DNA from: a virus
Taxonomy: Duplodnaviria > Caudoviricetes
Virus record (IMG/VR): IMGVR_UViG_3300046167_000321
Coordinates: 1 to 53,379 of that record
Length of the DNA: 53,379 bases
Reading direction: 5' to 3' (one strand)
The stretch's first letter is position 1, and each line of letters begins with the position of its first letter. The notes beneath the pieces were generated by a model. That model made no database searches. It saw only the letters and a list, made by a program, of their open reading frames with translations, and had not been told where the DNA came from. Below are positions 1 to 53,379 of the stretch, piece after piece. The position numbers and the translations under genes were made by a program.

Positions 1-779
1 TGCTGCATCACACGTTTGATTGTGCGGCCAGCCATCCCGGCCTCTTCCAATGCCAGCTCGGCCTCGGCTGGGTTGATCTCATTAAGCGCCCAGCGCTGCC
101 AGATGCTCACACGCTCTTTGAACCGCTCGGCCTCGGCTGTCACGAATGCTTTGACCTTGTTAGGATTGAACCCGGAAGTGTGGCGGAATACTGAAGTTTC
201 GAATTCGCCAAACGTCATCCCATTGTCGCAATACCAATCAATGGCCCCGGCATTACAGCGGATCGATGTTCCGCCGAAACCATTGACCACAGCAACCCGG
301 AATTTCAGGGAAGTGCTGCGCCCGGTAAGCTGGCGAATGTCTGCGCCGATCTCAGGAAAAGAATATTCAAACCGGGTAAAACGGCCATTGCGGCTGATGC
401 TTTCCCGCAGCTCGATGTTCTGCAGCGCTCGTGTAGGCAGCGCAGCCTCGCAGCCCTCGGCCAGTTTGGCGGCCAGATCCCCGTTCTGTGCTATTGCGTA
501 CCGTTCACCTACTACACCCAAGGCAGCCAGATTATCTGTGCGGCGGATCAGGCGGCCCACATTCTCAGGAACCCCGGAGAATTCCCCGTGGTGGGTGTCG
601 GTCCCGTTCATCTCATGAAACAGCTCGACAGCCTCGGCTGTGAACCCGGTTTGATCGAGCGCAGGAAACAGGCGGCGCATTGCCGGGCTTGGCTGCTCGG
701 CCTGTTGGCGTTCATGCAGCTTCTGAGCCAGCGAAATAATTTCAGGTGAAAGGTGGCTTAAATTTGTGAAAGTGTTCAT
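1..779 (-). CDS. DUF932/DUF945-like phage early protein, N-terminal part (runs off window start; not in ORF track)
   Basis: Manual translation from ATG 779 (RBS TAGGAG): MNTFTNLSH...RRTDNLAALGVVGERYAIAQN...VVNGFGG...WYCDNGM...FRHTSG...KRVMQ, open to position 1; motifs typical of DUF932. Confidence 0.8.
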   Translation of the reverse strand, partial: MNTFTNLSHLSPEIISLAQKLHERQQAEQPSPAMRRLFPALDQTGFTAEAVELFHEMNGTDTHHGEFSGVPENVGRLIRRTDNLAALGVVGERYAIAQNGDLAAKLAEGCEAALPTRALQNIELRESISRNGRFTRFEYSFPEIGADIRQLTGRSTSLKFRVAVVNGFGGTSIRCNAGAIDWYCDNGMTFGEFETSVFRHTSGFNPNKVKAFVTAEAERFKERVSIWQRWALNEINPAEAELALEEAGMAGRTIKRVMQ

Positions 780-799
780 TTGGTCATTCTCCTAGTTAG

Positions 800-863
800 T
801 GGCCTGTCTCATCAGTGCAGGGTGGCCATTGTCTGCAGACCGGGGCGCTGCCCCGGTTTCGAC
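800..863 (-). ncRNA. Type II hammerhead ribozyme with loop I pseudoknot (HHR-1)
   Basis: Minus strand: gtc-GAAA-C-cgggg(cagcg)ccccg-GUC^-tgcag(acaatggccacc)ctgca-CUGAUGA-gac-aggcca. Complete core and stems I-III; loop UGGCC pairs with tail GGCCA; predicted cut between 838 and 837. Confidence 0.92.
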
Positions 864-1481
864 TTAGTGATTAAACAGCCTTGCCCAGAAACCCCGGCCC
901 CGGCATTCGGCCAGACGCTCGGCCATCATTGTAATTTGATCCTCGGCCCGTGCTCGATCAGCCTCTGCCTCTTCCCGGCGCAGATATTCCTGATGCGCTT
1001 CGTTCTGCCATTTGTTGGCTATGCTGGGATCATTTAACCGGGCAATGGCTGCGGCCTCGTTTAGCTGGGCATTGGCCAGATCATGCCGGGCCTCATCCCG
1101 CTGCGCTTCCATAGATTTGCGCCCGGCCTTCTGGCCCTCATAGCTTTCTTCTAAAATGGCCAAACGATTGTTGGCAAAATTTAATTGTGCCTCGGCCTCG
1201 ACTAAACGCCGGGCCAGATCGTTGCGATCCTTCCGGGCTGATACCAGCTCGGCCCGATATAAAGAATGCACCGGGGCGGATGCTTTCAGGATCTTGTAAA
1301 TGGTGGGGATCGATACAGCGTAACTGTCAGCAATTTCTGCCACAGATGCACCGCCTTGCCTTGCCGATCTAATAGACGGGCCGTTAGCCCATGCCACCGC
1401 TGTCTTTTTAGCAACCCATTTTGTAGGGGCTTGGATGGTGTCGAAATTGTTGGCAAATCCTTTGAGTGTGATCTTGTTCAT
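864..1481 (-). CDS. HTH + coiled-coil protein with C-terminal amphipathic GFWARLF tail
   Basis: ARQGGASVAEIADSYAVSIPTIYKIL resembles a resolvase/Hin-type HTH; long heptad region; RBS TAGGAG. Confidence 0.7.
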   Translation of the reverse strand: MNKITLKGFANNFDTIQAPTKWVAKKTAVAWANGPSIRSARQGGASVAEIADSYAVSIPTIYKILKASAPVHSLYRAELVSARKDRNDLARRLVEAEAQLNFANNRLAILEESYEGQKAGRKSMEAQRDEARHDLANAQLNEAAAIARLNDPSIANKWQNEAHQEYLRREEAEADRARAEDQITMMAERLAECRGRGFWARLFNH

Positions 1482-1991: not shown

Positions 1992-2298
1992 TGGATGCGT
2001 CCCCCTCGTTTTCATGGTTGCACCCTTTGTGCTGGCCCTCAGTATTCCCGCCACCCTTGGCCACAGCATAAGCGAAAAATTCATGCTCGATCAGATCATC
2101 CAGATCTGCGGTTTCACAATTTATCTGAATAGATGGGCCATTCATACAGGCGCTGCTAAACTCAGATGACAGGCAGCACATATTGTGCAGCCCGTAATAG
2201 ATGTCGAGGCGGCTGCCAACACGGTTTAACAGTTCACAGATTTGGTTGTTGCTCAGATTATTGGCCAGTTCGCCAATGTCGATTGTCTCAGTATTCAT
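1984..2298 (-). CDS. Hypothetical early protein
   Basis: 104-aa ORF with RBS GAAGGA and the shared TGACCAAATG leader. Confidence 0.6.
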   Translation of the reverse strand: MNTETIDIGELANNLSNNQICELLNRVGSRLDIYYGLHNMCCLSSEFSSACMNGPSIQINCETADLDDLIEHEFFAYAVAKGGGNTEGQHKGCNHENEGDASNG

Positions 2299-2349
2299 TT
2301 GGTCATTCCTTCAAGTTAGATTTGAGCGGAGCCAATCGGCCCCAGCCCG

Positions 2350-2378
2350 GAAATATCAAAATCATTTCAGGGTGTCCA
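2350..2378 (-). promoter_or_regulatory. Putative sigma70-type early promoter
   Basis: Minus strand TGGACA-17-TATTTC followed by a GC hairpin leader resembling the one at 1505-1530. Confidence 0.45.
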
Positions 2379-2537
2379 GAAGAGTGTTCCCAAGCCCGGG
2401 AACTGGGTGCTTTGCGGCGTTGCAGCATGATTGATTCTGCGCTGCAGCATGGGTGTGGCTGGCGGTGTCGGCCCCCAGCACCACTGTGGCTTAGTGTGTG
2501 TATGAATTAAAAACTATGTGTGTTGTAGTTAATTCTT

Positions 2538-2806
2538 GACGTGTCAGTAAAATTAGTAGAAGTATCACCCTGACATAAATTCAAAGGAGCAGTAATGATA
2601 TTAAAAAAGAGCGAAGCTCAAGAATTAGGAAATGCATTGATTGATGCAATAGAATCTATGTCTGATAATGAAGAAAGCTATTATATATGTAGAATGGACT
2701 CTGGGCAGATTTTTAGTGTTAAAGGTGAAGAGGGAGATGATCATGATAATGGATTTGAAACCCTAGCATTCATTAAACAGTAGTAATACATCGACGTGTC
2801 AGTAAA
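2538..2806 (+). repeat. 14-bp direct repeat GACGTGTCAGTAAA flanking the 2595 ORF
   Basis: Identical copies at 2538-2551 and 2793-2806. Confidence 0.8.
2595..2783 (+). CDS. Small acidic hypothetical protein (AT-rich)
   Basis: RBS AAGGAG, 62 aa, followed by terminator. Confidence 0.65.
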   Translation: MILKKSEAQELGNALIDAIESMSDNEESYYICRMDSGQIFSVKGEEGDDHDNGFETLAFIKQ

Positions 2807-2809
2807 TCG

Positions 2810-2831
2810 AGGGGCCTTATGGCCCCTTTTT
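2810..2831 (+). terminator. Intrinsic terminator
   Basis: aggggcc-ttat-ggcccct-tttt. Confidence 0.75.
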
Positions 2832-2836
2832 CTATG

Positions 2837-2928
2837 AAAAAAGGCCCCGCTAAAAGGAAACAAAGCGGGGCCAGTGAGGCGTTGGATCTAACCAACAGGG
2901 AGGAACGAACTAAGGGAGGTTAGTTCGC
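2837..2928 (-). ncRNA. Candidate anti-Shine-Dalgarno sRNA (~92 nt)
   Basis: Promoter TGGACA-17-TAGGGT (2963-2935); hairpin cgaactaa-CCTCCC-ttagttcg; single-stranded TTCCTCCC; hairpin gttgg/ccaac; terminator ggccccgct/agcggggcc-T6. Confidence 0.7.
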
Positions 2929-2976
2929 ATAAACACCCTATCAAACACCCATCAAGGTGTCCACATATATTTTACC

Positions 2977-3005
2977 TTGACTTAGTTAAGTGTCCCATGC
3001 ATGTT
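2977..3005 (+). promoter_or_regulatory. Putative integrase promoter, divergent from the sRNA promoter
   Basis: TTGACT-17-CATGTT; the spacer holds a reverse copy of the GACACTTAA motif. Confidence 0.45.
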
Positions 3006-3036
3006 GGCGGGGCTTATAACTACGTGAGGTAAAGGA

Positions 3037-4128
3037 ATGAAGAGACACTATAAGTATATGCAAAAGGTCAAACTGAAACACGGTATGATCTGGGTCATCA
3101 ACCCATCGAAGGCAGTCAGGAAGGCGCTGGGCGTTGGGTACGAGAAGTACGATACATATCAAGAGGCCAAAGAAAGATCAGTTCAGATAGAGTTGGCCTT
3201 CGATGATTACAAAAGAACACAGCGTCCTACTAAGAAGCTGCACATAGAGGAAGACACAGTGGATTCACTGTTTCAGTTCTACACCAGCCGGGATGCATTC
3301 CAGAGTCTGTCTGAAAACAGCAAGAGAACGTACAGGTTTCTGTACAAGACAGCATCTGATCTGCGTATAGGTCAGTCCAACATACCATTTGGGCGCATGC
3401 TTATTAAAAGTGTGAATGCTAAGACTGCAGACGATCTGTTCTTAACACTGAGAACAGAGAAGAGTGATCATCGTGCCAATAGTGTGGTCAAGGTTCTTCG
3501 TAGAGTATGGTTCGTAGGCCGTAGAGGTATCTTAGGTGATGGTGCATCTAATCCATTCCAACAGATGGGCCTAAAGAAGCTAAACATCAGGCGCACAAGA
3601 TGGATGCCCGAGGACGTGGATGCATTTGTGTCTAAAGCAGATGAACTAGGCTATCAGTCTATAGGTACACTAGCCCTGTTATGCTATGACCTGTGCCAAA
3701 GGCCCGGAGACATGCGTAAGATGGTCTGGGGTAACTTCGATGGTGAGGTCTTTGCCTTCACTCAGGAGAAGACAGAAACTCCACTGACACTAGAATTATC
3801 TCCACGCCTCAGTAATCGGTTTGCTGATATAGTACGAGGCAAGGATGATGAATACATCGTCAAGTATGAGGCCACAGGTAGGCCATACGACATGCGTATG
3901 TATGCCAAGGTGGCACAGCATGTAAGAACCAAAGCCAAGTTAAGCTCCGATCTACAGATCAGGGATCTTAGACGCAGCGGAGCCACAGAGATGGGTGAGG
4001 CTGGATGTACTGAGGATGAGATTGCCGCAGTCACTGGCCACACATCACGCCAAATGCTTGAAATATACGTTAACCCTACACGGAAGATAGCTTCCCGGGG
4101 AATGCAGAAGAGGTGGCAGAATGCATGA
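3037..4128 (+). CDS. int: Tyrosine recombinase / integrase
   Basis: Catalytic set: CQRPGD (R), QEKT (K), RDLRRSG, TGH, IY; attP-like tRNA fragment 1 kb downstream. Confidence 0.9.
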   Translation: MKRHYKYMQKVKLKHGMIWVINPSKAVRKALGVGYEKYDTYQEAKERSVQIELAFDDYKRTQRPTKKLHIEEDTVDSLFQFYTSRDAFQSLSENSKRTYRFLYKTASDLRIGQSNIPFGRMLIKSVNAKTADDLFLTLRTEKSDHRANSVVKVLRRVWFVGRRGILGDGASNPFQQMGLKKLNIRRTRWMPEDVDAFVSKADELGYQSIGTLALLCYDLCQRPGDMRKMVWGNFDGEVFAFTQEKTETPLTLELSPRLSNRFADIVRGKDDEYIVKYEATGRPYDMRMYAKVAQHVRTKAKLSSDLQIRDLRRSGATEMGEAGCTEDEIAAVTGHTSRQMLEIYVNPTRKIASRGMQKRWQNA

Positions 4129-34200: not shown

Positions 34201-35107
34201 TATCTACAGATGCTAATGTAGCTTGTCCTGCAGAAGAAATGGTAGTGAAGCTACCTGCCACTGCGGAGTTAGCACCAATAACAGCACCATCAATAGCACC
34301 ACCATCGATGTTCACTGAGTTCAGTGTTGCTAGACCCGTGGATTCAAGAGTGGTGAACTTACCTGTGCTGTGTGAGTTTGCACCTACTGTAGCGCCATCA
34401 ATAGAACCACCATTAATATCTGCCGTGGCTGCTGTTAAAGATGTTGTAGCACTCAGTGTGGTAAACGTACCCGCTGCCGCTACAGTTGTACCAATAGCAG
34501 CATTGTCGATTGCGCCAGAGGCTACATCAATGTTGCTGATAGTTGTTGTCGTGCCTACGTTAAATATGGCGTTAGCATTAACAGTAAGAATACCTCCGAG
34601 ATATGTTGTAGTGGCTACGTTTAAGCTACCATCAATATCCGCATTCCCGGAAAGGAACAAATCCTTCCAACGCTTTAAAGTATGTCCTAGATCTTTAGTA
34701 TTATTTGCATGAGGAGCAAAATCCCCACTTGAATTAATGAATCTGTTTTCTAACCAGACTGCAGCGCCAGCCGCATTGTACACACATACATAATAACGAT
34801 CATCTGGAACATTATACCAGACAGAACCAACAGCATATCCATCATTGATATCGTCACCTACAGAAGGATCAGAAGTTGCTGAATAGTTATTTTTACCACC
34901 AAGACCACCGTTTGCAGCAGGTAAAAACCCGCTTACCGAAGTAGCGAGGTCTATCTTAGGTCCGTTGCCTGTAGTACCATCATGAGCATGGCCTGTAGTG
35001 CCATTGAATGCATCTTGAAGTGTGTTGAATTCAGCATTGATTGGGGGGGCGGTAATGTTCTCACCGTTAATAATCGATGCTGCGGACTGTCTGGTATATC
35101 CAGCCAT
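31202..35107 (-). CDS. Tail fibre protein
   Basis: MAGYTRQS anchor, DINGG.IDG repeats, DAATK.YVD repeats, C-terminal L.DYEEGTF and YTKVGRVVH. Confidence 0.88.
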   Translation of the reverse strand: MAGYTRQSAASIINGENITAPPINAEFNTLQDAFNGTTGHAHDGTTGNGPKIDLATSVSGFLPAANGGLGGKNNYSATSDPSVGDDINDGYAVGSVWYNVPDDRYYVCVYNAAGAAVWLENRFINSSGDFAPHANNTKDLGHTLKRWKDLFLSGNADIDGSLNVATTTYLGGILTVNANAIFNVGTTTTISNIDVASGAIDNAAIGTTVAAAGTFTTLSATTSLTAATADINGGSIDGATVGANSHSTGKFTTLESTGLATLNSVNIDGGAIDGAVIGANSAVAGSFTTISSAGQATLASVDINGGAIDGATIGATAASSGAFTTVTASGGITGALTGNVTGNTAGVHTGSVTGNVTGNLTGNVTAGSGTSTFTNVVVNGNLNMNAGTSATITNLTAPSADLDAATKKYVDDEISTLIGDAGAGLDTLGELADALNDDDAFSTTVTNSIATKLPKAGGTMTGAIAMSTNKITGVGDPTSAQDVATKVYTDTQRDTRVAKSGDTMSGALAMGNNKITGLATPTATTDATTKTYVDGLFQSTTAAATSASNAATSESNAATSATNASNSAASALTSKNAAATSLATFQNQYLGAQGSAPTADPDGSALDVGDLYFDTTAGAMKVYSANGWTNAGSSVNGTTNRYSYTATAGQTVFAATYDSGYVDVFLNGVKQLVGTDVTATSGTSVVFASGTTVNDIVEIVGYGTFVLSDHLTQTQSDARYVQVAGDTMTGNLSFGDNDKAIFGAGSDLQIYHDGSNSYVQDTAAGELILKSNGPSISFQKGDGTELFTVNTSGSSTLSYSGNAKLATTSTGVDITGGVTTNAYSYLNGLRISGADTGNTVYQQSGDLSISSASGSISLKPSGTNILHATNTGVGIGTGTSSPSSPLQIQSSNNQIRLVDSQNTSMYCVIETISDAGLSFNADVGGAAVSSRIQFNVDNSEKMRIDNDGNVIATSGSLNLVGTNTQIFASSNGDDIQFKFSGTKKASINNGGLISASDGSAVVPGFRFVDDPNTGMYRSASDTISFSTAGAERMRIRPDGAVRIYDSGQLGDTSGTPLILGNKNVSKQMEIGVNDSALTNPYITIIGRNSGNSTARLMSIGVQADSQYSYITDSSNSHDLRIYAGGNVVPSGNVVMGNGLGIDFSATSNGSSTEHSELLNDYEEGTFTYTLAGGTSGGWTSRTGYATGRYTKVGRVVHIQVRFEALNSGRNSPQGNLQITGFPFATSNHPSSGNGSFQVPVLLRGDSASNVASHFMSFGHQSTTGTFFQQTTGSTTISAVDSNADTTGAIEGTVSFSYVTDS

Positions 35108-43533: not shown

Positions 43534-45645
43534 CTATTGTGCGGGACCTTGTGGTGCTTGAGGTGGCGGATTGCCACCATTGTCTCCACCACCAGCTCCA
43601 GTGAATCCCGGTGCTCCCGGTTCTGGTGCATTACCCGGTACTGCCTGACCTCCGCCGTTATTGGTAGGATCAGGAGCCTGTGGTTGGCCCTGTGGTGCGG
43701 CTTGTTGTGGCATTAGAGCTGCCATCTCAGCCATTAGTTTAGCTTGTACCATAGCTTCTCGAGGATCATTCATGATGTAATCTTCATCAAGATCCATAGA
43801 AGCCGCTATTTCTTTTAGAACGTAATCAAACTTAATGAATGGTGCCATTGCCGGGTTACCAGACAACTGCATAAACTGAATAAGTCGTTGTGACCTAATT
43901 TCGTTACGCATTAGGCTTTCAGTGCCACGAGCAACCACATCTAAGTCACCCTGAAGGTCTTCGTTGTAGTTGAACTGCATGTTAAATGCGAAGAGTGATT
44001 TACCCAAAGGAGCAAGAAGGTAATCATCGATGTTCTTAACCACGGACTTAATGCCTTGTGCGGCTGCGCCCATGAGCATCGACATACCAGAAGCTGTTCT
44101 ACCCACACCCGTAACTCCAGTAGAGCCGTGAGCAAACGAAGGCATACCTGTGCTTTCATCCGATAGCTGTCGAGCCTTATCAAACATCATGATTAACTCT
44201 TGGCTTACGTTAGGGAACTTGGTGCCAAAAATCGCCTGTCCGGGTGCGCCAGCCTGTCTCCGAAACACTTTGCCGGGGTAAATGGACATATCTTGTCCCG
44301 GGACCAAATTCGTCTCATCAACTTCAACTAGAAGGTTGCCTGATAGCGCAGCGTTGTCCACTGCCATCCGCATAAAACCGTTCATGAGAAGCTGCGTGTC
44401 TTCCATGTTCTCTGCAACGCCGATTCCGAAAAATCCGTAGGGATTAAGCTCGAATGGTACTGCAGAATAAGGAATACGAGTAGGAGTAAATGGGTTCATC
44501 ACTAAGCGCAGGATCTGTCCGTTACAAATCCAAGCATTTACGTGTATTTCGTCACGATCACTTAGTTCATCCGGTATATCTAGGTCTGCTGCTTCGGCTG
44601 TCTCGCTATCAACAACACCCCAGTATTCTAGTACCTCAAAACGCTCAATATCTGATTGTGTTTGGTTATCTTCTAAGATTTCTTCCCAATACTGCTGGGT
44701 ATAGTCTGCGCCAAACTCAATCGCTAGTTCAATGCTTTCCTCACGGAAGAATGGGCGGTTTTTAAGCGCACGTATTTGTGTACGGCTCATTCTGTGACGT
44801 TGAACAACATACTCAGCATCATGCATGCTACGTGCATCAGGATCTGGGTACATATTCCAGATAGAGACGGATTCTACCTTTGGAATAGTCTTAAATGTAG
44901 GATCATACTCGCCTTTGTCGTTCCAGCGAGGGTATTCTTTGTCTGCTGCAAACGGACCCTTTAGAATACCTGTACCAAACAGAGAACACTCGAATGCTAC
45001 AGAGCGTAAGTGCTTATCAGCGTCAGATTCCTCGAGCTGATCATGTATCATGCCTTCCATAAGTCGTGCAGACTTCTTGGCAGGTTCAAATGTAGCAGAC
45101 GTAGGTGTAGCACCCGGCCCATCTTGCAAAGAATCCTTAACTGGATCTAGCCTGTCTTTATATGGACCTGCCTGTTCCAATAACTCGGGGCGAGGACTAA
45201 TAGGACGTAGAGGTGATTTACCATCTGGACCAGTTTGTGTCTGTGCCTCAAAGTGCATGGACTTAACAGCCCCTTCGGGATACCGAGATGCCTCAATACC
45301 AATAGGAAACTTGCTGCCAGCAAAGAGTACGTCAGTAACCTGTGCATAAGCAGCCAAAACCTTGGTCTTCGTAATTTTAATAAATGCTTTGGACTTCTCT
45401 GTGTCCGTAAATTGTACTTCTGGGCCATATATACCACGGTAATTGCGGTAGGCCATTAGCCATCGATCTTCGTCGGATTCACGTCTTGTTTTAGAACGCT
45501 CGTAGCGTTCCCGGACATGAGCAACCAGACCAGAAAACTCGATGTTTTCTTCTTCTACGTTACCATCTTCTTCCAGAGCCACAACATTAGTATTTTCTGT
45601 AGGTGTATCTGGTGAGATATCTTCCGGTCTAGTCATTAAAGCCAT
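43534..45645 (-). CDS. Portal protein
   Basis: W..AYRNYRG.Y, F.K.TKTKVLAAY, GTG.LKGP, YPDP.A, TASGMSMLM. Confidence 0.9.
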   Translation of the reverse strand: MALMTRPEDISPDTPTENTNVVALEEDGNVEEENIEFSGLVAHVRERYERSKTRRESDEDRWLMAYRNYRGIYGPEVQFTDTEKSKAFIKITKTKVLAAYAQVTDVLFAGSKFPIGIEASRYPEGAVKSMHFEAQTQTGPDGKSPLRPISPRPELLEQAGPYKDRLDPVKDSLQDGPGATPTSATFEPAKKSARLMEGMIHDQLEESDADKHLRSVAFECSLFGTGILKGPFAADKEYPRWNDKGEYDPTFKTIPKVESVSIWNMYPDPDARSMHDAEYVVQRHRMSRTQIRALKNRPFFREESIELAIEFGADYTQQYWEEILEDNQTQSDIERFEVLEYWGVVDSETAEAADLDIPDELSDRDEIHVNAWICNGQILRLVMNPFTPTRIPYSAVPFELNPYGFFGIGVAENMEDTQLLMNGFMRMAVDNAALSGNLLVEVDETNLVPGQDMSIYPGKVFRRQAGAPGQAIFGTKFPNVSQELIMMFDKARQLSDESTGMPSFAHGSTGVTGVGRTASGMSMLMGAAAQGIKSVVKNIDDYLLAPLGKSLFAFNMQFNYNEDLQGDLDVVARGTESLMRNEIRSQRLIQFMQLSGNPAMAPFIKFDYVLKEIAASMDLDEDYIMNDPREAMVQAKLMAEMAALMPQQAAPQGQPQAPDPTNNGGGQAVPGNAPEPGAPGFTGAGGGDNGGNPPPQAPQGPAQ

Positions 45646-45648
45646 ATT

Positions 45649-47514
45649 TTAATATCCAAATACTGAGTCAGAGGGTTGCCACCTGTTTATGGGTTTGTCT
45701 CCAAAATCAAATGGTGAGAATGCTTTAGGACGGGACATGATGCCGTAGCGTATCGAGTCGTAAGCGTGGTCAGAGGCATATCTAGGATCGATATCGTCTG
45801 TACCTTTGGGGTCTGTAGGAATGACAGGTAGATCTGCAATGATCTGTCGGCAGTTGTTGAAAAATACTATGCCGGGTATTTCTGTCTCTTCATCTACTTT
45901 TAGTAATTCATGTAATCTGTTCTTGCCAGCTACCCTAGCCCCTGCAGATCGATCAGATGGACGCCATCGACATCCTTCGGAAATCATTTCTTCTGCAATA
46001 CTAGGACCAATTTGACCTCGGTTATGCCAACATGAACTGTCTAGGATTCCGTACTGTATGTTATCGCCTTCTTCAGCACTTAGTACGGCTTTAGCTAAAT
46101 CCCTACCAGTGTGCTTACTAAGGTACAGTTCACGGTAAACATAAAGTGTTTCGTAACTGGGGTCAATAGCAAACCAGTGTACCGCACTATAAGAACTGTA
46201 ACCGAAGTCTGCGGACCTAAATCTGCGCCACTCGTGTGGTATCTCAAACGGTTCGCATACATGAGTTAACTGTCTAAACTCGCTGAACGCAGCCCCGTCA
46301 GCCATCGCCCAATCGCCATCTAGTAATTGCCGCCTTTGCATTTCAGGCAGAGATAACAAGTTGGCTTCGTATGTACCTTCTTTGTATAGGTACGGGTTAT
46401 CTTTAAGTGTTGCAGGAATAAACCTACGTTGAAATAAAGGCTGCCCTGCCTTTTCGTGACTATCCGGGTATCTTAGAACTTCACCCGATTCAATATCAGT
46501 AGCATTAAAAGCACTACCAGCGGGGGCAGGATCTACAAAGGCCTTTTTAACCCATTGATGACCGGGGCCGCCCGGGTTGCTTGTAGCCCGAAGAAATACG
46601 GGCAGGTCAGGATTAGTTGTACGAAGTCGTGATCGAAGATATTGCCACGAAAATGGGGTGGCGTATTGTGTGAGTTCGTCCACTCCGATGTAACTAAATG
46701 CCTGACCCTGATATCTTAGAACGTCTTCATCACGTTCCAGATATGTCATCCATAACTTAGCTCCACTTGGGAACGTCCATTGGCTTTTCTTCTCCGCCCA
46801 TTTCGCTCCCGGGTACGCTTTCGGATACAGCTCTTGGCTCTTCCATACCAATTCACGGAGTTCGTCATTCGTCCTTCTAAGGATGAGTCCGTTGAAATCA
46901 GGTACTGAAAAATATCGTAAGGGATCTGCGAGGAGTCCGTATGACTTACCGCCTCCTGCTGCCCCGCCGTAGAGCACTTCTCTTTCCGGTGCCGCCAAAA
47001 ACTCTGTCTGTGGTCCGGGGTTTGGTTTGAATATGACTTCACGTTCTTGAGGTGTGGCCTCAAAGTCTAATCCTTCACTGACGCCTTGGTAGGGTTGCAT
47101 CAAGCCCTCTTCAGGCTTTTGTTTTTCCTTCAGCTTGTTCTCAGCCATAGTTCTCATACGCTTGGCGTCTGAAATTCTACGTTTAAGTTTAGCTTCAGCT
47201 TTATCTGATGCAGTCTTAGGCTTGCGTTTCCGGTTCTGTTTGTTCAGATCCTTCTGACGCTTGCTATCCCCACCTTTATGCATCCGCCATAAGTTGCTGA
47301 TGCCCTGATGGGAAATCCGTACCCCTGTCTGTTCAGAAACCCAGTGTGCAGTTTCTCGTAGGGAGTGTCCGTTTTCAAGGTAAACGAAGGCCTGTTCTAC
47401 TACCTCTACCTGTTCTTGGTCAGGGAGTAATACTAGAGGATCATCTTCACTTGCCTTATAGGCGTAAGGTATCTTTGCGGTAGGATTGTGCCTACTCTTC
47501 TGTTCCCATTTCAT
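45649..47514 (-). CDS. terL: Terminase large subunit with N-terminal DNA-binding-like extension
   Basis: YGGAAGGGKS, IGVDELTQ, ATSNPGG.GH.WVK, DFGY, DHAYDS.RY. Confidence 0.95.
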   Translation of the reverse strand: MKWEQKSRHNPTAKIPYAYKASEDDPLVLLPDQEQVEVVEQAFVYLENGHSLRETAHWVSEQTGVRISHQGISNLWRMHKGGDSKRQKDLNKQNRKRKPKTASDKAEAKLKRRISDAKRMRTMAENKLKEKQKPEEGLMQPYQGVSEGLDFEATPQEREVIFKPNPGPQTEFLAAPEREVLYGGAAGGGKSYGLLADPLRYFSVPDFNGLILRRTNDELRELVWKSQELYPKAYPGAKWAEKKSQWTFPSGAKLWMTYLERDEDVLRYQGQAFSYIGVDELTQYATPFSWQYLRSRLRTTNPDLPVFLRATSNPGGPGHQWVKKAFVDPAPAGSAFNATDIESGEVLRYPDSHEKAGQPLFQRRFIPATLKDNPYLYKEGTYEANLLSLPEMQRRQLLDGDWAMADGAAFSEFRQLTHVCEPFEIPHEWRRFRSADFGYSSYSAVHWFAIDPSYETLYVYRELYLSKHTGRDLAKAVLSAEEGDNIQYGILDSSCWHNRGQIGPSIAEEMISEGCRWRPSDRSAGARVAGKNRLHELLKVDEETEIPGIVFFNNCRQIIADLPVIPTDPKGTDDIDPRYASDHAYDSIRYGIMSRPKAFSPFDFGDKPINRWQPSDSVFGY

Positions 47515-49066: not shown

Positions 49067-49520
49067 TCCAAGCCCACCATATCAGCCCAGCGCATCCACC
49101 GAGAACGATTGTTACAACTATACCCCACTGGAATACTTCCATTAGGAATGCTCGTGCCTTGGCTTGTTCTTCGGCTTCTTGTCTTTTGCGAACCCGCTCT
49201 TGGGCCTGAAACTTTACCCAATCATCATAGAGGCCCGGACGCCCATATAGGCGCATATGGCTTTCGATTTCCTTACGAGCTTGCTTGAGCTTGTCGAGTT
49301 CTAGGAACTCCTCGAAGCTGTTTTCATCTTTGCCCATAGCGGCAGAGAATAAACTCTTCTTCCTGCGGTCACCTTGTGCCTTTAAGGTTTCTTCAGCAGT
49401 CAGGATTGCTCCCAACTGCTTTCCCATAGATCCTATCTCTCGACCATGCCCAATCAGGGTTTTAACCTGTGAAATTGCGGCATTGGCGGCTCCTACAACC
49501 GCCAGAGTTTCTGCTATCAA
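49050..49520 (-). CDS. Membrane-anchored helical protein
   Basis: RBS GGGAGG, C-terminal TM. Confidence 0.65.
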   Translation of the reverse strand: MIAETLAVVGAANAAISQVKTLIGHGREIGSMGKQLGAILTAEETLKAQGDRRKKSLFSAAMGKDENSFEEFLELDKLKQARKEIESHMRLYGRPGLYDDWVKFQAQERVRKRQEAEEQAKARAFLMEVFQWGIVVTIVLGGCAGLIWWAWIASGR

Positions 49521-49542
49521 AGCCGTTCCTCCCGAACCGCTA

Positions 49543-49686
49543 TTAGTCGCCGTATACCCTCTGTCTTAACTCACCCCGGGTTACCCCGATGTCTTTGAGT
49601 TGTTTGTCAGTCATGTTCTGAAGAACAAAGTAGGCAGCTCTACGCTCCTGTGTACGAGCTATGGCTTTAAAGATTTTGTTGAACAT
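49543..49686 (-). CDS. DUF1127 (YjiS-like) small protein (47 aa, not in ORF track)
   Basis: MFNKIFKAIARTQERRAAYFVLQNMTDKQLKDIGVTRGELRQRVYGD matches L..(L/M).D..L.DIG..R; RBS GGAG, TATAAT upstream. Confidence 0.85.
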   Translation of the reverse strand: MFNKIFKAIARTQERRAAYFVLQNMTDKQLKDIGVTRGELRQRVYGD

Positions 49687-49768
49687 AATTATCTCCATTG
49701 TTGATGTTCTATGGAGTTAATTATATCACACCCTATTAGGTGTTACTTCGGACAATACGGTATACCCG

Positions 49769-49969
49769 TTATGTGTTCTCGCCATCCATCTTAACAGGGA
49801 TGCAAGAACCTACAGCAAAGACATTCCGTTCTCTAACAGTTTTTAGCTGCTTTTTGAGTTCTACATTGCAATCGCTTTCAGACGCCGTAATAACGGGGCG
49901 CACTGCATATCTGCAATCAGAGGCCAAAGGGCCTATGCACATCAAAGCAACTGCAACGAAGTAGGTCAC
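49769..49969 (-). CDS. Small secreted/membrane Cys-containing protein
   Basis: Hydrophobic N-terminus, four Cys. Confidence 0.5.
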   Translation of the reverse strand: MTYFVAVALMCIGPLASDCRYAVRPVITASESDCNVELKKQLKTVRERNVFAVGSCIPVKMDGENT

Positions 49970-50121
49970 TTCTTCTTTTTCTTAGCGTAACCGCCGCCGT
50001 AGGCTTCCATCTCACGATCTTTGCGCTTCTTAGGCGCAGCCATCTTGTTAGACATCAGACCACCGTTGTATGCCTTAACGCTGGCACCACAGTTAGCTTT
50101 TTCAATCTTCATCTTCTTCAT
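49966..50121 (-). CDS. Small basic protein with AYxGG motifs (51 aa, not in ORF track)
   Basis: MKKMKIEKANCGASVKAYNGGLMS...EAYGGGYAKKKKK; overlaps neighbouring stop/start on both sides. Confidence 0.7.
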   Translation of the reverse strand: MKKMKIEKANCGASVKAYNGGLMSNKMAAPKKRKDREMEAYGGGYAKKKKK

Positions 50122-50375
50122 CTGGTATTCTCCATTAAACGCAGGGCTAGGTTGATATCTTCCTTAACATCCTGCGGATCTTCTTGCAGATTTTGGGAAG
50201 TCGCATCGTCCATCCAATAGTACTCAGAGTAACCTCTAAATTCGTAGGCATCATCACCGTCTGTGATCATCCCTTCTTCAATGAGATACTTCTTCGTTTC
50301 TTTTAGGGATAGACGTATTCCGGTGTTTGCCTCGATGGCAGCACGGACATAGTACAAATTTACTGGGGAGGACAT
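50118..50375 (-). CDS. Conserved hypothetical protein
   Basis: YYVRAAIEANTG..L......YL.EEG.I; promoter TTGACC-18-TATAAC at about 50413-50442. Confidence 0.7.
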   Translation of the reverse strand: MSSPVNLYYVRAAIEANTGIRLSLKETKKYLIEEGMITDGDDAYEFRGYSEYYWMDDATSQNLQEDPQDVKEDINLALRLMENTR

Positions 50376-50525
50376 AATAGTGCCTTAATACTACAGCGTC
50401 CTGTCTCTAACTGTTATACCATATAGGCAATAGTTAGGTCAACATGCGAGTAGTAGTTATCGAATTCGCTTGCCAAGAAGCAAATTACATGTTAAAACTT
50501 ATTTGGATGCGAAGCAGACAAATAC

Positions 50526-50960
50526 CTATAGCATGGTCATCTGTTTATATACGGGGCGCTCGATAAGGGCGTCCTTTTTCGTTTCTAGCCAATAAACAAC
50601 CTTCCTAACCTCTTCCAGACTCGCATCGTTCTTAATCCGGTTCGCTCGGTTAGATATAATGGTTACATTCCCTCGGACATAACCCAATGATGGGTCCAAT
50701 CTGTCTATAGAGGGAGCATGATCTACTACAGCCCGGGCATCAGCTAACCAATCCAACTGAATTCCTAAAACAGGGCAGTATAACGGGAAGGGAGCCAGAT
50801 CCTCTACCTCAATATCAAAAGGTATGTCTGAATCCTTGCATCTATGTTTAGCTGAGTGCAGATTCCAGCTCATTCTCTTCCGAATATGGTATTCCAACAG
50901 GTCTACCTTCGATACATGGTCTAGATCTTCTTCATTCCACATCTCTAGATCGCCCATCAA
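50526..50960 (-). CDS. HNH-type (His-Me) endonuclease
   Basis: CPVLG..L, PSIDR.DP..GYV.GNV.IIS..AN..K. Confidence 0.8.
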   Translation of the reverse strand: MMGDLEMWNEEDLDHVSKVDLLEYHIRKRMSWNLHSAKHRCKDSDIPFDIEVEDLAPFPLYCPVLGIQLDWLADARAVVDHAPSIDRLDPSLGYVRGNVTIISNRANRIKNDASLEEVRKVVYWLETKKDALIERPVYKQMTML

Positions 50961-51282
50961 AAAGATCCTCTGCTGCAGACAGGCTATCTTCCATCTGTCC
51001 TGCTACTGTACGCATCTCTTCCGCTGATCGAGCCAGCTCATGGGCTATCGAATAAAGGGATTGGTACATCTCAACACCAAACTCACGGTGTGTGTCTATC
51101 ACTAGCTCAGTGACCGCCTCGAATGGTATCCGAACTTCAATAGGATCATCCTCATCACCCAAAAACATAAGGGTGACTAGGGTACATACCCCTTCATCAT
51201 TAACTTCTAAGTCATTTTCAAGGTAACACTGTATTGGTAGTGATACATCCACGCCATTGGAATCCATAAGTACCTCTATCAC
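50932..51282 (-). CDS. Acidic hypothetical protein
   Basis: 116-aa ORF overlapping HNH gene start. Confidence 0.6.
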   Translation of the reverse strand: MIEVLMDSNGVDVSLPIQCYLENDLEVNDEGVCTLVTLMFLGDEDDPIEVRIPFEAVTELVIDTHREFGVEMYQSLYSIAHELARSAEEMRTVAGQMEDSLSAAEDLFDGRSRDVE

Positions 51283-51998
51283 TGGCGCATGTCCGATCTA
51301 AACCGGAGAATAACGTCATCTTAACCTACATATTGTACCCGAGTCAATAGCTAGGTGTTATATACGGTGCTCTCATCCACACTTTGTTGACATTTACAAC
51401 CAATATAATCCCAGAATAACCACGAGGGCTTTGACATTCCTGTAGGCTGGTCCATACCCCGGCTCTATTTACAGTGCTTAAATTCCAATCTCGGGTAGGG
51501 TTTGTATACGAGTACGGGTACCCCCCCGGGTGGCACTCGCCCCGGCCCGGATCAGCCCGAAACCCGTTAAAAGCATGGCCGAAACCCCTTGTTTGTATGG
51601 TTTTTCTGGGATCGATCCCGTTTTATGTTGGCTGTTCTGTTAACTGTTAGTTATCCGCCCCGACAACACGCTGTAGCACCCTATCCCCCCGGGGTGCGGT
51701 GGCCGATTGCTGCCCTGCAGAATATCTTGACGGGATTATAAAACGGGCGGAGGCGTCCCGGTTGAGCACCAAACAAACACCAGTAGGAACCCCGGCCAGA
51801 TCCTATCCCTGATCGATCACACACCCGGGCATTGTCTCAGCCTCGATCCCGTGCAGATCCGCCCTCGATCCGGGGCGCTGTTCCTGTGTGCCTCTGTGCT
51901 GCGTTTTAAGAGGCCATAAAGACACCTAGCTAACCTGCCCTACCGGGCGGAATAGATCACCCCTCTGTGCGTGGCTCTGTGTGGCTCTCAGGCATAAG

Positions 51999-52025
51999 AA
52001 AAGGCCCGGGGGTTAACCGGGCCTC
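51999..52025 (-). terminator. Intrinsic terminator of early operon
   Basis: Minus strand aggcccgg-ttaacc-ccgggcct-tttctt. Confidence 0.8.
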
Positions 52026-52050
52026 TGACGTTGCTTTGTGGTGGTGGCTG

Positions 52051-52266
52051 TTAGCTGTGTGTGTACCCGTCCGCCTCGATGGCCAGCCACATGCCGGGAA
52101 CCTGAACCACCACAGCATCATCCATGCCAAAGGTGCTTTTCACATCCCGGCGGAATTCCCGGTAAGATCCGGTCAAACCGGGGCGGCTGCCGTTGCTTTC
52201 ATGCCAACGCTGCCAGACCGCATAAACGGCCCGGCGCTGCGCTTTGGTGAGTTGAACCCCGGCCAT
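52051..52266 (-). CDS. Conserved small phage early protein
   Basis: MAGVQLTKAQRRA...SYREFRR...GMWLAIEADGYTHS. Confidence 0.7.
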   Translation of the reverse strand: MAGVQLTKAQRRAVYAVWQRWHESNGSRPGLTGSYREFRRDVKSTFGMDDAVVVQVPGMWLAIEADGYTHS

Positions 52267-52267
52267 C

Positions 52268-52762
52268 TTACCAGCTCGCCTGATAGTGAACGCTGCGCCA
52301 TTGTGCATGCGATCCGCTGGGGTGCTTTGGTGAAGCCTCGAGCCACCGGGCGGCTGCCCGGATCTTGTCCGCATGCTGTGCAGCCTCGGCCCGGTATTCA
52401 TCCCAGCCCTCACCTGATCCAAAAAAGAACCCACCACAATCATCATTAGATGGCAGGGCATCATCAGTTAAGGCCACGGCGATCTTTTCCAGATCATCCT
52501 CATCCAGACAGATCCGCTGGCATTCATCCACACCCTCGGCAAAGGTCTTCACGATGTATTCATGCAGCGGTGCAAACTTGCGCCAATAGCCCAGCTCGTG
52601 CTGGGTGCTGCAAACAGGCTCACCATCATCATCAACAGGCTTGCCCAGTGCACGGGCCTCTTCGAAGCTCGGGCGTTCTTTCCCGGCCTCATATTCATCC
52701 TGCAGGGTTTTATAATCTGGCACGAAATACTTTTCGCCTGAAAGGTACATATCCAATCCCAT
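52268..52762 (-). CDS. Conserved phage early protein (MGLDMY...YWRK...GFFFG...YQASW family)
   Basis: Characteristic motifs, RBS GGGGGA. Confidence 0.8.
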   Translation of the reverse strand: MGLDMYLSGEKYFVPDYKTLQDEYEAGKERPSFEEARALGKPVDDDGEPVCSTQHELGYWRKFAPLHEYIVKTFAEGVDECQRICLDEDDLEKIAVALTDDALPSNDDCGGFFFGSGEGWDEYRAEAAQHADKIRAAARWLEASPKHPSGSHAQWRSVHYQASW

Positions 52763-52776
52763 GATCTTATCCCCCC

Positions 52777-53112
52777 TTATGCTGCTATGCAGCCATCAGC
52801 CCGGGCGGCTGCGGCATACTGTGAAATAGTTTTATCAGCGGTGAAATACATATCCCGCTCGATCCCGATCCCCAGCGGCCCCTGTACTGCTTCCAGCTCT
52901 GTGATCGATACGCTGCCCAGCTCCGGGGAACCCATGCCCAGATCACACAGGCCGAAAGCAATATCGCCCTCGATCTCGGTCAGCAGCCACGTTGCAGCCC
53001 CGGCAGGATTAAAGAGCTTTACCACCGGGCGGTGATCGTCTTCGCCTTCAATCTCAGTCTTCCGGGCGTTTGCCTCGAGCTTCGTGCGGATCTCTTTTGT
53101 GATTAGTTTCAT
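52777..53112 (-). CDS. DUF2958 family protein
   Basis: PVVKLF.P.GAATWLLTE...FGLCDLG.G.PELG.VS..EL.......IERD..F. Confidence 0.88.
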   Translation of the reverse strand: MKLITKEIRTKLEANARKTEIEGEDDHRPVVKLFNPAGAATWLLTEIEGDIAFGLCDLGMGSPELGSVSITELEAVQGPLGIGIERDMYFTADKTISQYAAAARADGCIAA

Positions 53113-53133
53113 TTTGGTCAGTCTCCTAGTTAG

Positions 53134-53202
53134 TGGGCTGTCTCATCAGTGACCCTTGCCCAAGGTGGCCAGACGCCCGGGGATTAGCCCGAGCGTTTCG
53201 AC
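53134..53202 (-). ncRNA. Type II hammerhead ribozyme with loop I pseudoknot (HHR-2)
   Basis: Minus strand: gtc-GAAA-C-gctcggg(ctaatc)cccgggc-GUC^-tggcc(accttgggcaag)ggtca-CUGAUGA-gac-agccca; loop UGGGC pairs with tail GCCCA; predicted cut between 53172 and 53171. Confidence 0.92.
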
Positions 53203-53203
53203 T

Positions 53204-53379
53204 TTATGCAGCCATGCCGATCCGGGCCATCGCTGGGTGGCTTATGATCTGGCCCACCTCACGCTCCCGGCGATCTAATACCTCGGCCACGTTGTCGATG
53301 TTCGAGCTGTTACGAACCGGGAACAATTCGCTATTGTGGCTCGAGCGCTGTGTGAGCGCTGAATATACGGCCCACGTTG
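53204..53379 (-). CDS. DUF932-like protein, C-terminal part (continuation of 1..779)
   Basis: TWAVYSALTQRSSH...GMAA-stop; W..Y.A.T...H is the usual DUF932 C-terminal motif. Confidence 0.75.
   Translation of the reverse strand, partial: TWAVYSALTQRSSHNSELFPVRNSSNIDNVAEVLDRREREVGQIISHPAMARIGMAA

Follow-up and report, generated by a model that had tools for sequence, protein, structure and literature searches.

In this study, we describe two hammerhead ribozymes, HH1 and HH2, in the IMG/VR virus record IMGVR_UViG_3300046167_000321, the whole of which (53,379 bases) is the stretch of DNA analysed here and is referred to as the window. Both are located in junctions of a minus-strand operon, HH1 (798-864) between the gene of a 205-amino-acid (aa) protein and a DUF932 gene, and HH2 (53132-53203) between the 3' end of DUF932 and a DUF2958 gene. 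We consider it fairly probable that these are ordinary, probably constitutive type II hammerheads acting as intercistronic processing sites of an accessory operon in a marine tailed phage. Each ribozyme occupies the entire gap from the upstream stop codon to the downstream ribosome-binding region. Self-cleavage in vivo, which we infer, would close the upstream RNA with the stem III hairpin and a terminal 2',3'-cyclic phosphate, and the downstream RNA would start with a 5'-hydroxyl, the stem I hairpin and a loop-tail pseudoknot, 6 nucleotides (nt) upstream of an unpaired Shine-Dalgarno (SD) sequence. In this way, cleavage might uncouple the cistrons and provide each mRNA with ends that are defined and structured, and hence with a stability and translation of its own.

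Anatomy of the two hammerheads and their place in the operon

The elements themselves, their positions, their conservation and their covariation were observed directly. HH1 matched the Rfam family Hammerhead_II (RF02276) with 37.7 bits at a gathering score of 37, and HH2 matched it with 34.8 bits (E 0.0022). The hammerhead at the HH2 junction of a related phage record, G001, scored 38.8 bits. In both HH1 and HH2, the structure alignment spans model positions 1-66 of 66, with the core CUGAUGA, GAAA and the triplet GUC all at model positions, and no family besides Hammerhead_II was found at E<=1 in the Rfam scan of the window. The topology is that of type II in both cases: loops cap stems I and III, and stem II, comprising 3 base pairs (bp; GUC/GAC), is open. 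On these sequence characters, HH1 and HH2 are assigned as new sequences of a known class, the type II hammerheads.

In HH1, the UAA stop of the 205-aa open reading frame (ORF; stop at 866-864) is followed by the 5' strand of stem II, GUC (863-861), by GAAA (860-857) and by the stem III hairpin (856-840). The cleavage triplet GUC occupies 840-838, with the cut predicted after C838. Stem I is formed by 837-833 with 820-816, and its loop (832-821) contains UGGCC (828-824). The core CUGAUGA (815-809) leads into the 3' strand of stem II, GAC (808-806), then A805 and the pseudoknot tail GGCCA (800-804), which pairs with UGGCC of loop I. In HH2, the stop UAA (53206-53204) is followed by A53203 and the stem II strand GUC (53202-53200), and the cut is predicted after C53172. 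The core CUGAUGA is intact at 53149-53143, with GAC at 53142-53140, and the tail GCCCA (53134-53138) pairs with UGGGC of loop I (53158-53162). A preliminary description of this DNA had proposed that a ribosome terminating at the upstream stop covers the 5' strand of the 3-bp stem II. The geometry behind this proposal is what we find: UAA is joined directly to GUC in HH1 and by a single A in HH2, and the abutment is conserved in 14 of 14 cases in relatives. Its observation that the pseudoknot tails run gap-free into leader, ribosome-binding site (RBS) and start codon was likewise borne out for both hammerheads, with the coordinates in agreement.

The 5-bp pseudoknot covaries between the two copies, UGGCC:GGCCA in HH1 being replaced by UGGGC:GCCCA in HH2. 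A loop-tail helix of at least 4 bp was present in all 11 distinct family hammerheads parsed, compared with 34% when the tails were shuffled. From CACUGAUGAGACAG to the AUG, HH1 and HH2 are identical apart from the G/C change in the pseudoknot, one A/C difference and one extra A. In both, 6 nt separate the pseudoknot tail from the downstream SD, which is unpaired in the minimum free energy (MFE) folds of the cut and uncut forms alike.

The genes of the operon are all encoded on the minus strand. The 205-aa ORF (864-1481), which ends in a UAA stop (864-866) immediately adjacent to stem II of HH1, showed a weak HTH_23 match below the Pfam cut-off, and its product is 49% identical to that of the gene located between the two hammerheads of G001. 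The DUF932 gene (3-779; Pfam PF06067, E 1.6e-6) encodes residues 1-259 and runs off the record. A C-terminal piece of DUF932, recognized by alignment to the G001 protein, is found at the other end of the window (53204-53377), with its UAA stop (53204-53206) 1 nt before stem II of HH2. The DUF2958 gene (52777-53112; Pfam PF11171, E 9e-42) encodes 111 aa. The left-end ORF aligned with residues 1-259 of G001 DUF932 at 91% identity and the right-end ORF with residues 272-328 (53 of 57 residues identical). Since both window ends align to one DUF932 protein, the record is a permuted, nearly closed genome from which about 12 codons are missing. Because the window ends thus split a single DUF932 gene, the two ribozymes belong to one operon, with a minus-strand order, as annotated, of 205-aa gene, HH1, DUF932, HH2 and DUF2958, both ribozymes flanking DUF932.

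The record is classed as linear, with a CheckV completeness of 99%. Its genes for a terminase large subunit (45649-47514) and for a portal or head-tail adaptor protein (43534-45645) identify it as a tailed phage. G+C content is 52-57% at both ends (about 1-2500 and 51500-53379) versus about 45% elsewhere, and comparison with the complete relative G001 indicated that these high-GC ends belong to the phage. Prophage attachment repeats were sought between 2000-3100 and 49500-52500, and no common repeat longer than 10 nt was detected. Among bacterial DUF2958 proteins, those of Alphaproteobacteria come nearest, with identities of 55-60%.

Spacing and gene order in related and unrelated phages

In all 14 family hammerheads parsed in the window and its relatives, representing 4-5 separate junction types, the distance from the end of the stop of a long upstream ORF to stem II is between -3 and +1 nt, and in 12 of the 14 the AUG lies 24-29 nt past stem II. 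The distance between tail and leader is more variable. It is zero only in the closest relatives, and elsewhere amounts to about 3-5, 9-10 or 20 nt. Hence, the gap-free succession of tail and leader emphasized in the preliminary description holds for the window and its closest relatives and fails in other relatives, where a spacer of up to about 20 nt intervenes.

A scan of IMG/VR with a generic core pattern returned at least 120 stretches. The following counts refer to the matches listed, among which 97 candidates were parsed in 60 loci; 86 of these, from unrelated phages, were far enough from locus ends to be used for spacing. The stop codon of a long ORF lay within 6 nt upstream in 49 of the 86 (57%), compared with 2.5% of random positions, and an SD-preceded start was found 11-37 nt downstream in 58 (67%, versus 7.8%). 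Both features occurred together in 35 of the 86, versus 0.3% of the random control, which consisted of 17,200 positions in the same loci. Where the loop-tail helix comprised at least 4 bp, an SD-like tetramer started 0-14 nt past the tail in 34 of 43 cases. The succession of stop codon, hammerhead and RBS is thus the norm of phage type II hammerheads and is not peculiar to this locus. Since tight gene packing alone predicts the same geometry, it cannot be taken as evidence of coupling between cleavage and translation. In the literature, we found no paper stating stop-to-stem-II or tail-to-SD spacings, the supplements of Perreault et al. (2011) lying outside this check.

Hammerhead arrays were also seen in unrelated phage contigs (loci L190 to L309), those parsed including six hammerheads in L202 and four in each of L209, L243 and L276; most of these arrayed hammerheads fit tightly between a stop codon and a start with an SD in front of it. 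RF02276 yielded at least two matches in 151 alphaproteobacterial genomes, in a survey in which most first-look candidates were left unscored.

Comparison of the related records, designated G001 to G005, revealed how the junctions vary. At the 3' junction of DUF932, a hammerhead is present in the window, G001, G003 and G004. In G002, a GC hairpin (L086, 3985-4035) takes this place, with the same leader behind it. The 28.7-kb record of G002 yielded no hammerhead at all, but it has the leaders and a homolog of the small RNA (sRNA) candidate described below. The presence of a hairpin at the same junction in G002 suggests a similar role for hammerhead and hairpin in structuring RNA ends. The 205-aa gene and DUF932 stand in one order in the window and G005 and in the opposite order in G001, G003 and G004 (window 864-1481 and 3-779; L089 3001-4634). 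Across these swaps, the 5' half of each hammerhead, including stem III, stays with its upstream gene. Leader variants were exchanged as well: comparing the window with G005, UAGGAGA and UUGAAGGA have traded places at the 104-aa gene and DUF932. UGACC and AUGAA were kept regardless of reading frame, as in AUGACCAUGAAC versus UGACCAAAUGAAC, and stem II GUC/GAC is common to all hammerheads of the closest relatives. These swaps fit recombination at a site made up of the leader and the conserved hammerhead 3' half, a role that we keep as a rival or an additional one.

A hammerhead lies directly upstream of DUF2958 in 5 of 79 viral loci. With a motif parser less sensitive than a covariance model, neither the 75 bacterial loci nor the other 74 viral loci showed one beside DUF2958. 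A general association of hammerheads with DUF2958 was rejected on these counts (5 of 79 viral and 0 of 75 bacterial loci).

The initiation cassette and the small RNA candidate

The sequence following the pseudoknot tails has the consensus CUAACUAGGAGA[A/C]UGACC(A)AAAUG and leads into the start of DUF932 behind HH1 and of DUF2958 behind HH2. In the DUF932 copy (777-799), CUAACU (799-794) precedes the SD AGGAG (789-793), a spacer and the AUG (777-779); in the DUF2958 copy (53110-53133), CUAACU is at 53133-53128, the SD AGGAG at 53123-53127 and the AUG at 53110-53112. Two further copies were found behind GC hairpins without a hammerhead, namely UUAACUAGGAGACUGACCAAAUG of the 205-aa gene (1479-1501) and the variant CUAACUUGAAGGAAUGACCAAAUG of the 104-aa gene (2296-2319), both on the minus strand. 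The four copies correspond to a repeat family of the window, D3 (765-798, 1467-1500, 2284-2317 and 53099-53132, all minus strand), and each terminates at the start codon of a gene. Three of them are exact to TAACTAGGAGANTGACCAAA, and 100 shuffled sequences contained no match in a search that tolerated up to 2 mismatches in window and shuffles.

In the six related records (G001-G005, L018/L020), nearly all genes of this module begin with YUAACU(N)GGAG...UGACC...AUGAA, with or without a hammerhead. The exact leader pattern was absent from the GTDB representative genomes (0 matches) and was found in IMG/VR only in the two closest relatives. Since two of the four window copies stand behind GC hairpins and the leader recurs in relatives including G002, we regard it as independent of the ribozyme. 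CUAACUAGGAGAnUGACC(A)AAAUG is, as read from these genomes, the standard translation-initiation cassette of the module, used equally behind plain GC hairpins. The preliminary description had marked this stretch as a predicted sRNA site. That label does not hold, as the stretch is an initiation cassette with four copies in the window, two of them without a ribozyme, and recurs at most module genes of relatives.

The sRNA candidate in question is encoded on the minus strand at 2836-2932, its 5' end being uncertain, and is predicted to comprise hairpin 1, a seed, hairpin 2 and an intrinsic terminator. Hairpin 1 carries a CCUCCC loop (2914-2919), and the single-stranded seed CCUCCCUG is located at 2896-2903. 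The candidate lies about 500 nt upstream of the first gene of the module, on the same strand. Homologs were identified at the same place in G005, G003, G004, G001 and G002, and thus, with the window, in 6 of 6 records. RNAalifold detected compensatory changes in 8 of 14 predicted pairs, and the sole invariant part of the RNA across the six records is the seed. No Rfam family scored above threshold for this candidate.

As the mark of an sRNA operator, we used contiguous complementarity of about 6-7 nt or more to a conserved single-stranded region of the sRNA. In the four leaders, the longest contiguous complement to CCUCCCUG is 3-4 nt, a length found in 136 of 163 start regions of the window, with 5 nt or more in 10 of 163. 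Ranked by duplex energy with the sRNA among 94 start regions, three of the leaders took places 17, 31 and 33; the DUF932 leader was left out of this ranking, its ORF running off the record. In a duplex scan of the HH1 leader against the whole window, the sRNA region was not among the best 25 partners, the top ones being the trivial antisense strand and chance sites in coding regions. An apparent extra pairing, UAGUU:AACUA, falls within the variable arm of hairpin 1. In G003, CUAGACCC takes the place of the 3' arm UUAGUU of this hairpin, and G004, G001 and G002 have a different arm or none, with CUAACU of the leader remaining constant.

Two candidate interactions were rejected. The best RNAduplex solutions for sRNA and leader, which involve the terminator stem and interior loops of large size, lack conservation. 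UGGCC of the sRNA, considered as a competitor for the HH1 tail, offers only 5 bp, lies within the terminator stem and is not conserved in other phages. The candidate sRNA is itself conserved and present, but is a poor fit to the leaders. Two claims of the preliminary description are thereby left unsupported. The sRNA was said to target the leaders, whose match to the seed is of a length typical of start regions, with a pairing not conserved across related genomes. It was also said to form, with the ribozymes, a compound switch specific to DUF932 and DUF2958, although the leader also occurs at ribozyme-free genes and its seed match is no better than background.

Elsewhere in the window, the start region with the best seed complementarity is that of a 1301-aa ORF starting at 35107 on the minus strand (CAGGGAG). 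The orthologous region of G001 matches too, and the match is not significant alone. The start region of a 156-aa ORF (49520, minus strand) contains GGGAGGAAC, a perfect 9-nt complement of the sRNA stretch GUUCCUCCC; the non-seed part of this GUUCCUCCC:GGGAGGAAC pairing is not conserved in other phages. An integrase gene (3037-4128, plus strand) adjoins the sRNA candidate. Between the sRNA and the module, a direct repeat (2525-2551 and 2780-2806; TTTACTGACACGTC... on the minus strand) brackets a small plus-strand ORF (2595-2783), and a similar pair of repeats surrounds a small ORF in G001 (L089, 1500-1800). The direct repeats at 2525-2551 and 2780-2806 may be an operator.

Alternative explanations and relation to known systems

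Several points weigh against the interpretation of HH1 and HH2 as ordinary processing sites. With 34.8 bits, HH2 falls under the Rfam gathering score of 37, and the MFE folds of both regions are no stabler than those of shuffled sequences (z of -1.7 and -1.15). Related sequence from RNA libraries was found as contigs only (eleven runs, shares of 0.05-0.16), with neither joints nor pile-ups of starts or ends reported, and contigs cannot display RNA ends. The effects of 5'-hydroxyl and 2',3'-cyclic phosphate ends on RNA stability, on which the interpretation draws, are taken from general knowledge. Moreover, the spacer UGACC(A)AA and AUGAA are conserved beyond what an SD requires, and the cassette may therefore carry an additional signal that lies outside this explanation.

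Such conservation, which for UGACC and AUGAA is independent of reading frame, is one of the grounds for a reading in which the cassette and the 3' half of the hammerhead serve as a recombination linker for gene shuffling, or as a site bound by a phage protein acting as a shared regulator, with the adjacency of the ribozyme being incidental. It would also account for the swapped order of the 205-aa gene and DUF932 with the 5' half of the hammerhead following its upstream gene, for the leader variants exchanged between genes in the window and G005, and for the GUC/GAC stem II common to the closest relatives. However, no regulator was identified, the HTH_23 match of the 205-aa protein being below the Pfam cut-off, and the cassette is placed exactly where SD, spacer and AUG must be. 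As only six related records are available, the swaps represent few events, and we regard this reading as distinctly improbable. The compound switch is far more improbable still. In such a switch, the sRNA would pair with CUAACUAGGAGA beside the tail and modulate ribozyme folding and ribosome loading at DUF932 and DUF2958. The conserved same-strand sRNA with its C-rich, anti-SD-like motifs in all six records speaks for it, as does CUCCCUUAGUU, which is able to pair imperfectly with AACUAGGAG in the window. Yet the leaders offer the seed only the 3-4 contiguous bases common to most start regions, their duplex energies rank as given above, the UUAGUU arm is replaced in G003 or absent in G004, G001 and G002 despite a constant CUAACU, and the leader is found without ribozymes too. 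Weak pairing of the sRNA with the SD of the leaders may nevertheless occur.

The tight fit of the ribozymes between stop codon and RBS raises the possibility of translation-gated cleavage, which we consider tentative and rather unlikely. A terminating ribosome would mask stem II together with GAAA and stem III's 5' half, such that the ribozyme could fold and cut only after this ribosome has left; a ribosome footprint reaches roughly 12-15 nt downstream of the A site. Further, the pseudoknot tail would be within reach of a 30S subunit bound at the SD and AUG downstream, so that cleavage and the translation of both cistrons might be kinetically coupled. The constant position of the stop (between -3 and +1 nt from stem II in all 14 family hammerheads, from 4-5 junction types, and within 6 nt in 49 of the 86 listed hammerheads versus 2.5% at random) and that of the AUG (24-29 nt past stem II in 12 of 14) are consistent with gating. 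On the other hand, a 65-85-nt element in a minimal intergenic gap must touch stop and RBS anyway, and no alternative fold sequestering the SD was predicted. Translation gating supplements the explanation as intercistronic processing sites and does not exclude it. A bolder generalization, which we judge unlikely, is that phage type II hammerheads are generally translation-gated punctuation, with the upstream stop touching stem II and the next RBS starting a few nucleotides past the pseudoknot tail. The terminating ribosome would hold back the folding and cutting of the ribozyme, and once cut, the next cistron would be free to be translated and to decay independently. In this phage, two ribozymes with an interchangeable stem II (GUC/GAC) would excise a DUF932 mRNA whose ends might be ligated, and a circular or re-ligated form is therefore conceivable.

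This locus brings to light no new kind of regulator. Its value lies in a natural series, in which a hammerhead in some sister phages and a plain hairpin in another occupy one and the same junction, with the same cassette behind both, and to which the permuted gene order with the ribozyme following its upstream gene adds. Together with the spacing counts over the 86 listed hammerheads, this series provides a concrete, testable architecture for ribozyme-mediated uncoupling of cistrons.

Synthetic insulators of the RiboJ type offer a functional parallel. There, a hammerhead just upstream of the RBS strips the upstream RNA context and leaves a hairpin before the SD. RiboJ, an engineered derivative of a hammerhead from a plant satellite RNA, is positioned behind a promoter, and thus differs from natural type II hammerheads between cistrons. 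The sRNA candidate, in turn, resembles the anti-hemB RNAs (RF02837), which are anti-SD sRNAs with a C-rich seed, in having the seed CCUCCCUG, a short hairpin and a terminator. In contrast to these, it scored only 20.5 bits (E 2; relatives 22.5-23.6 bits) against a gathering score of 49.5 and is not a member, and the hammerhead leaders are poor matches.

Among viral ribozymes, HHphage of the haloviruses HF1 and HF2 is similar in lying shortly upstream of a start codon (13 nt there) on an early polycistronic transcript, the mapped 5' end of which is within 3 nt of the HHphage cleavage site (PMC3088659). However, as described in that paper, HHphage is a structural variant from an archaeal virus, needs high salt and is positioned upstream of the first ORF rather than between ORFs. 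Self-cleavage just upstream of an ORF, linked there to its translation, is also described for RNA-virus ribozymes (bioRxiv 10.1101/2024.05.16.594327). According to that preprint, these are type I hammerheads of eukaryotic viruses that act in cap-independent initiation. The type II hammerheads of prophages and phages (RF02276), as described by Perreault et al. (PMC3088659), have a pseudoknot that joins loop I to the 3' tail and occur in several copies flanking single genes, and the processing of long transcripts into single-gene mRNAs was proposed for them. Reviews repeat this processing hypothesis and call the role of bacterial and phage hammerheads open (PMC6765202, PMC6155905). HH1 and HH2 share with them the core, the open stem II of 2-3 bp, the closed stems I and III, the pseudoknot and the flanking of genes. 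Unlike in the main text of Perreault et al. (2011), in which the terms 'stop codon' and 'Shine-Dalgarno' occur 0 times (PMC3088659), the spacings from stop to stem II and from tail to SD are quantified here.

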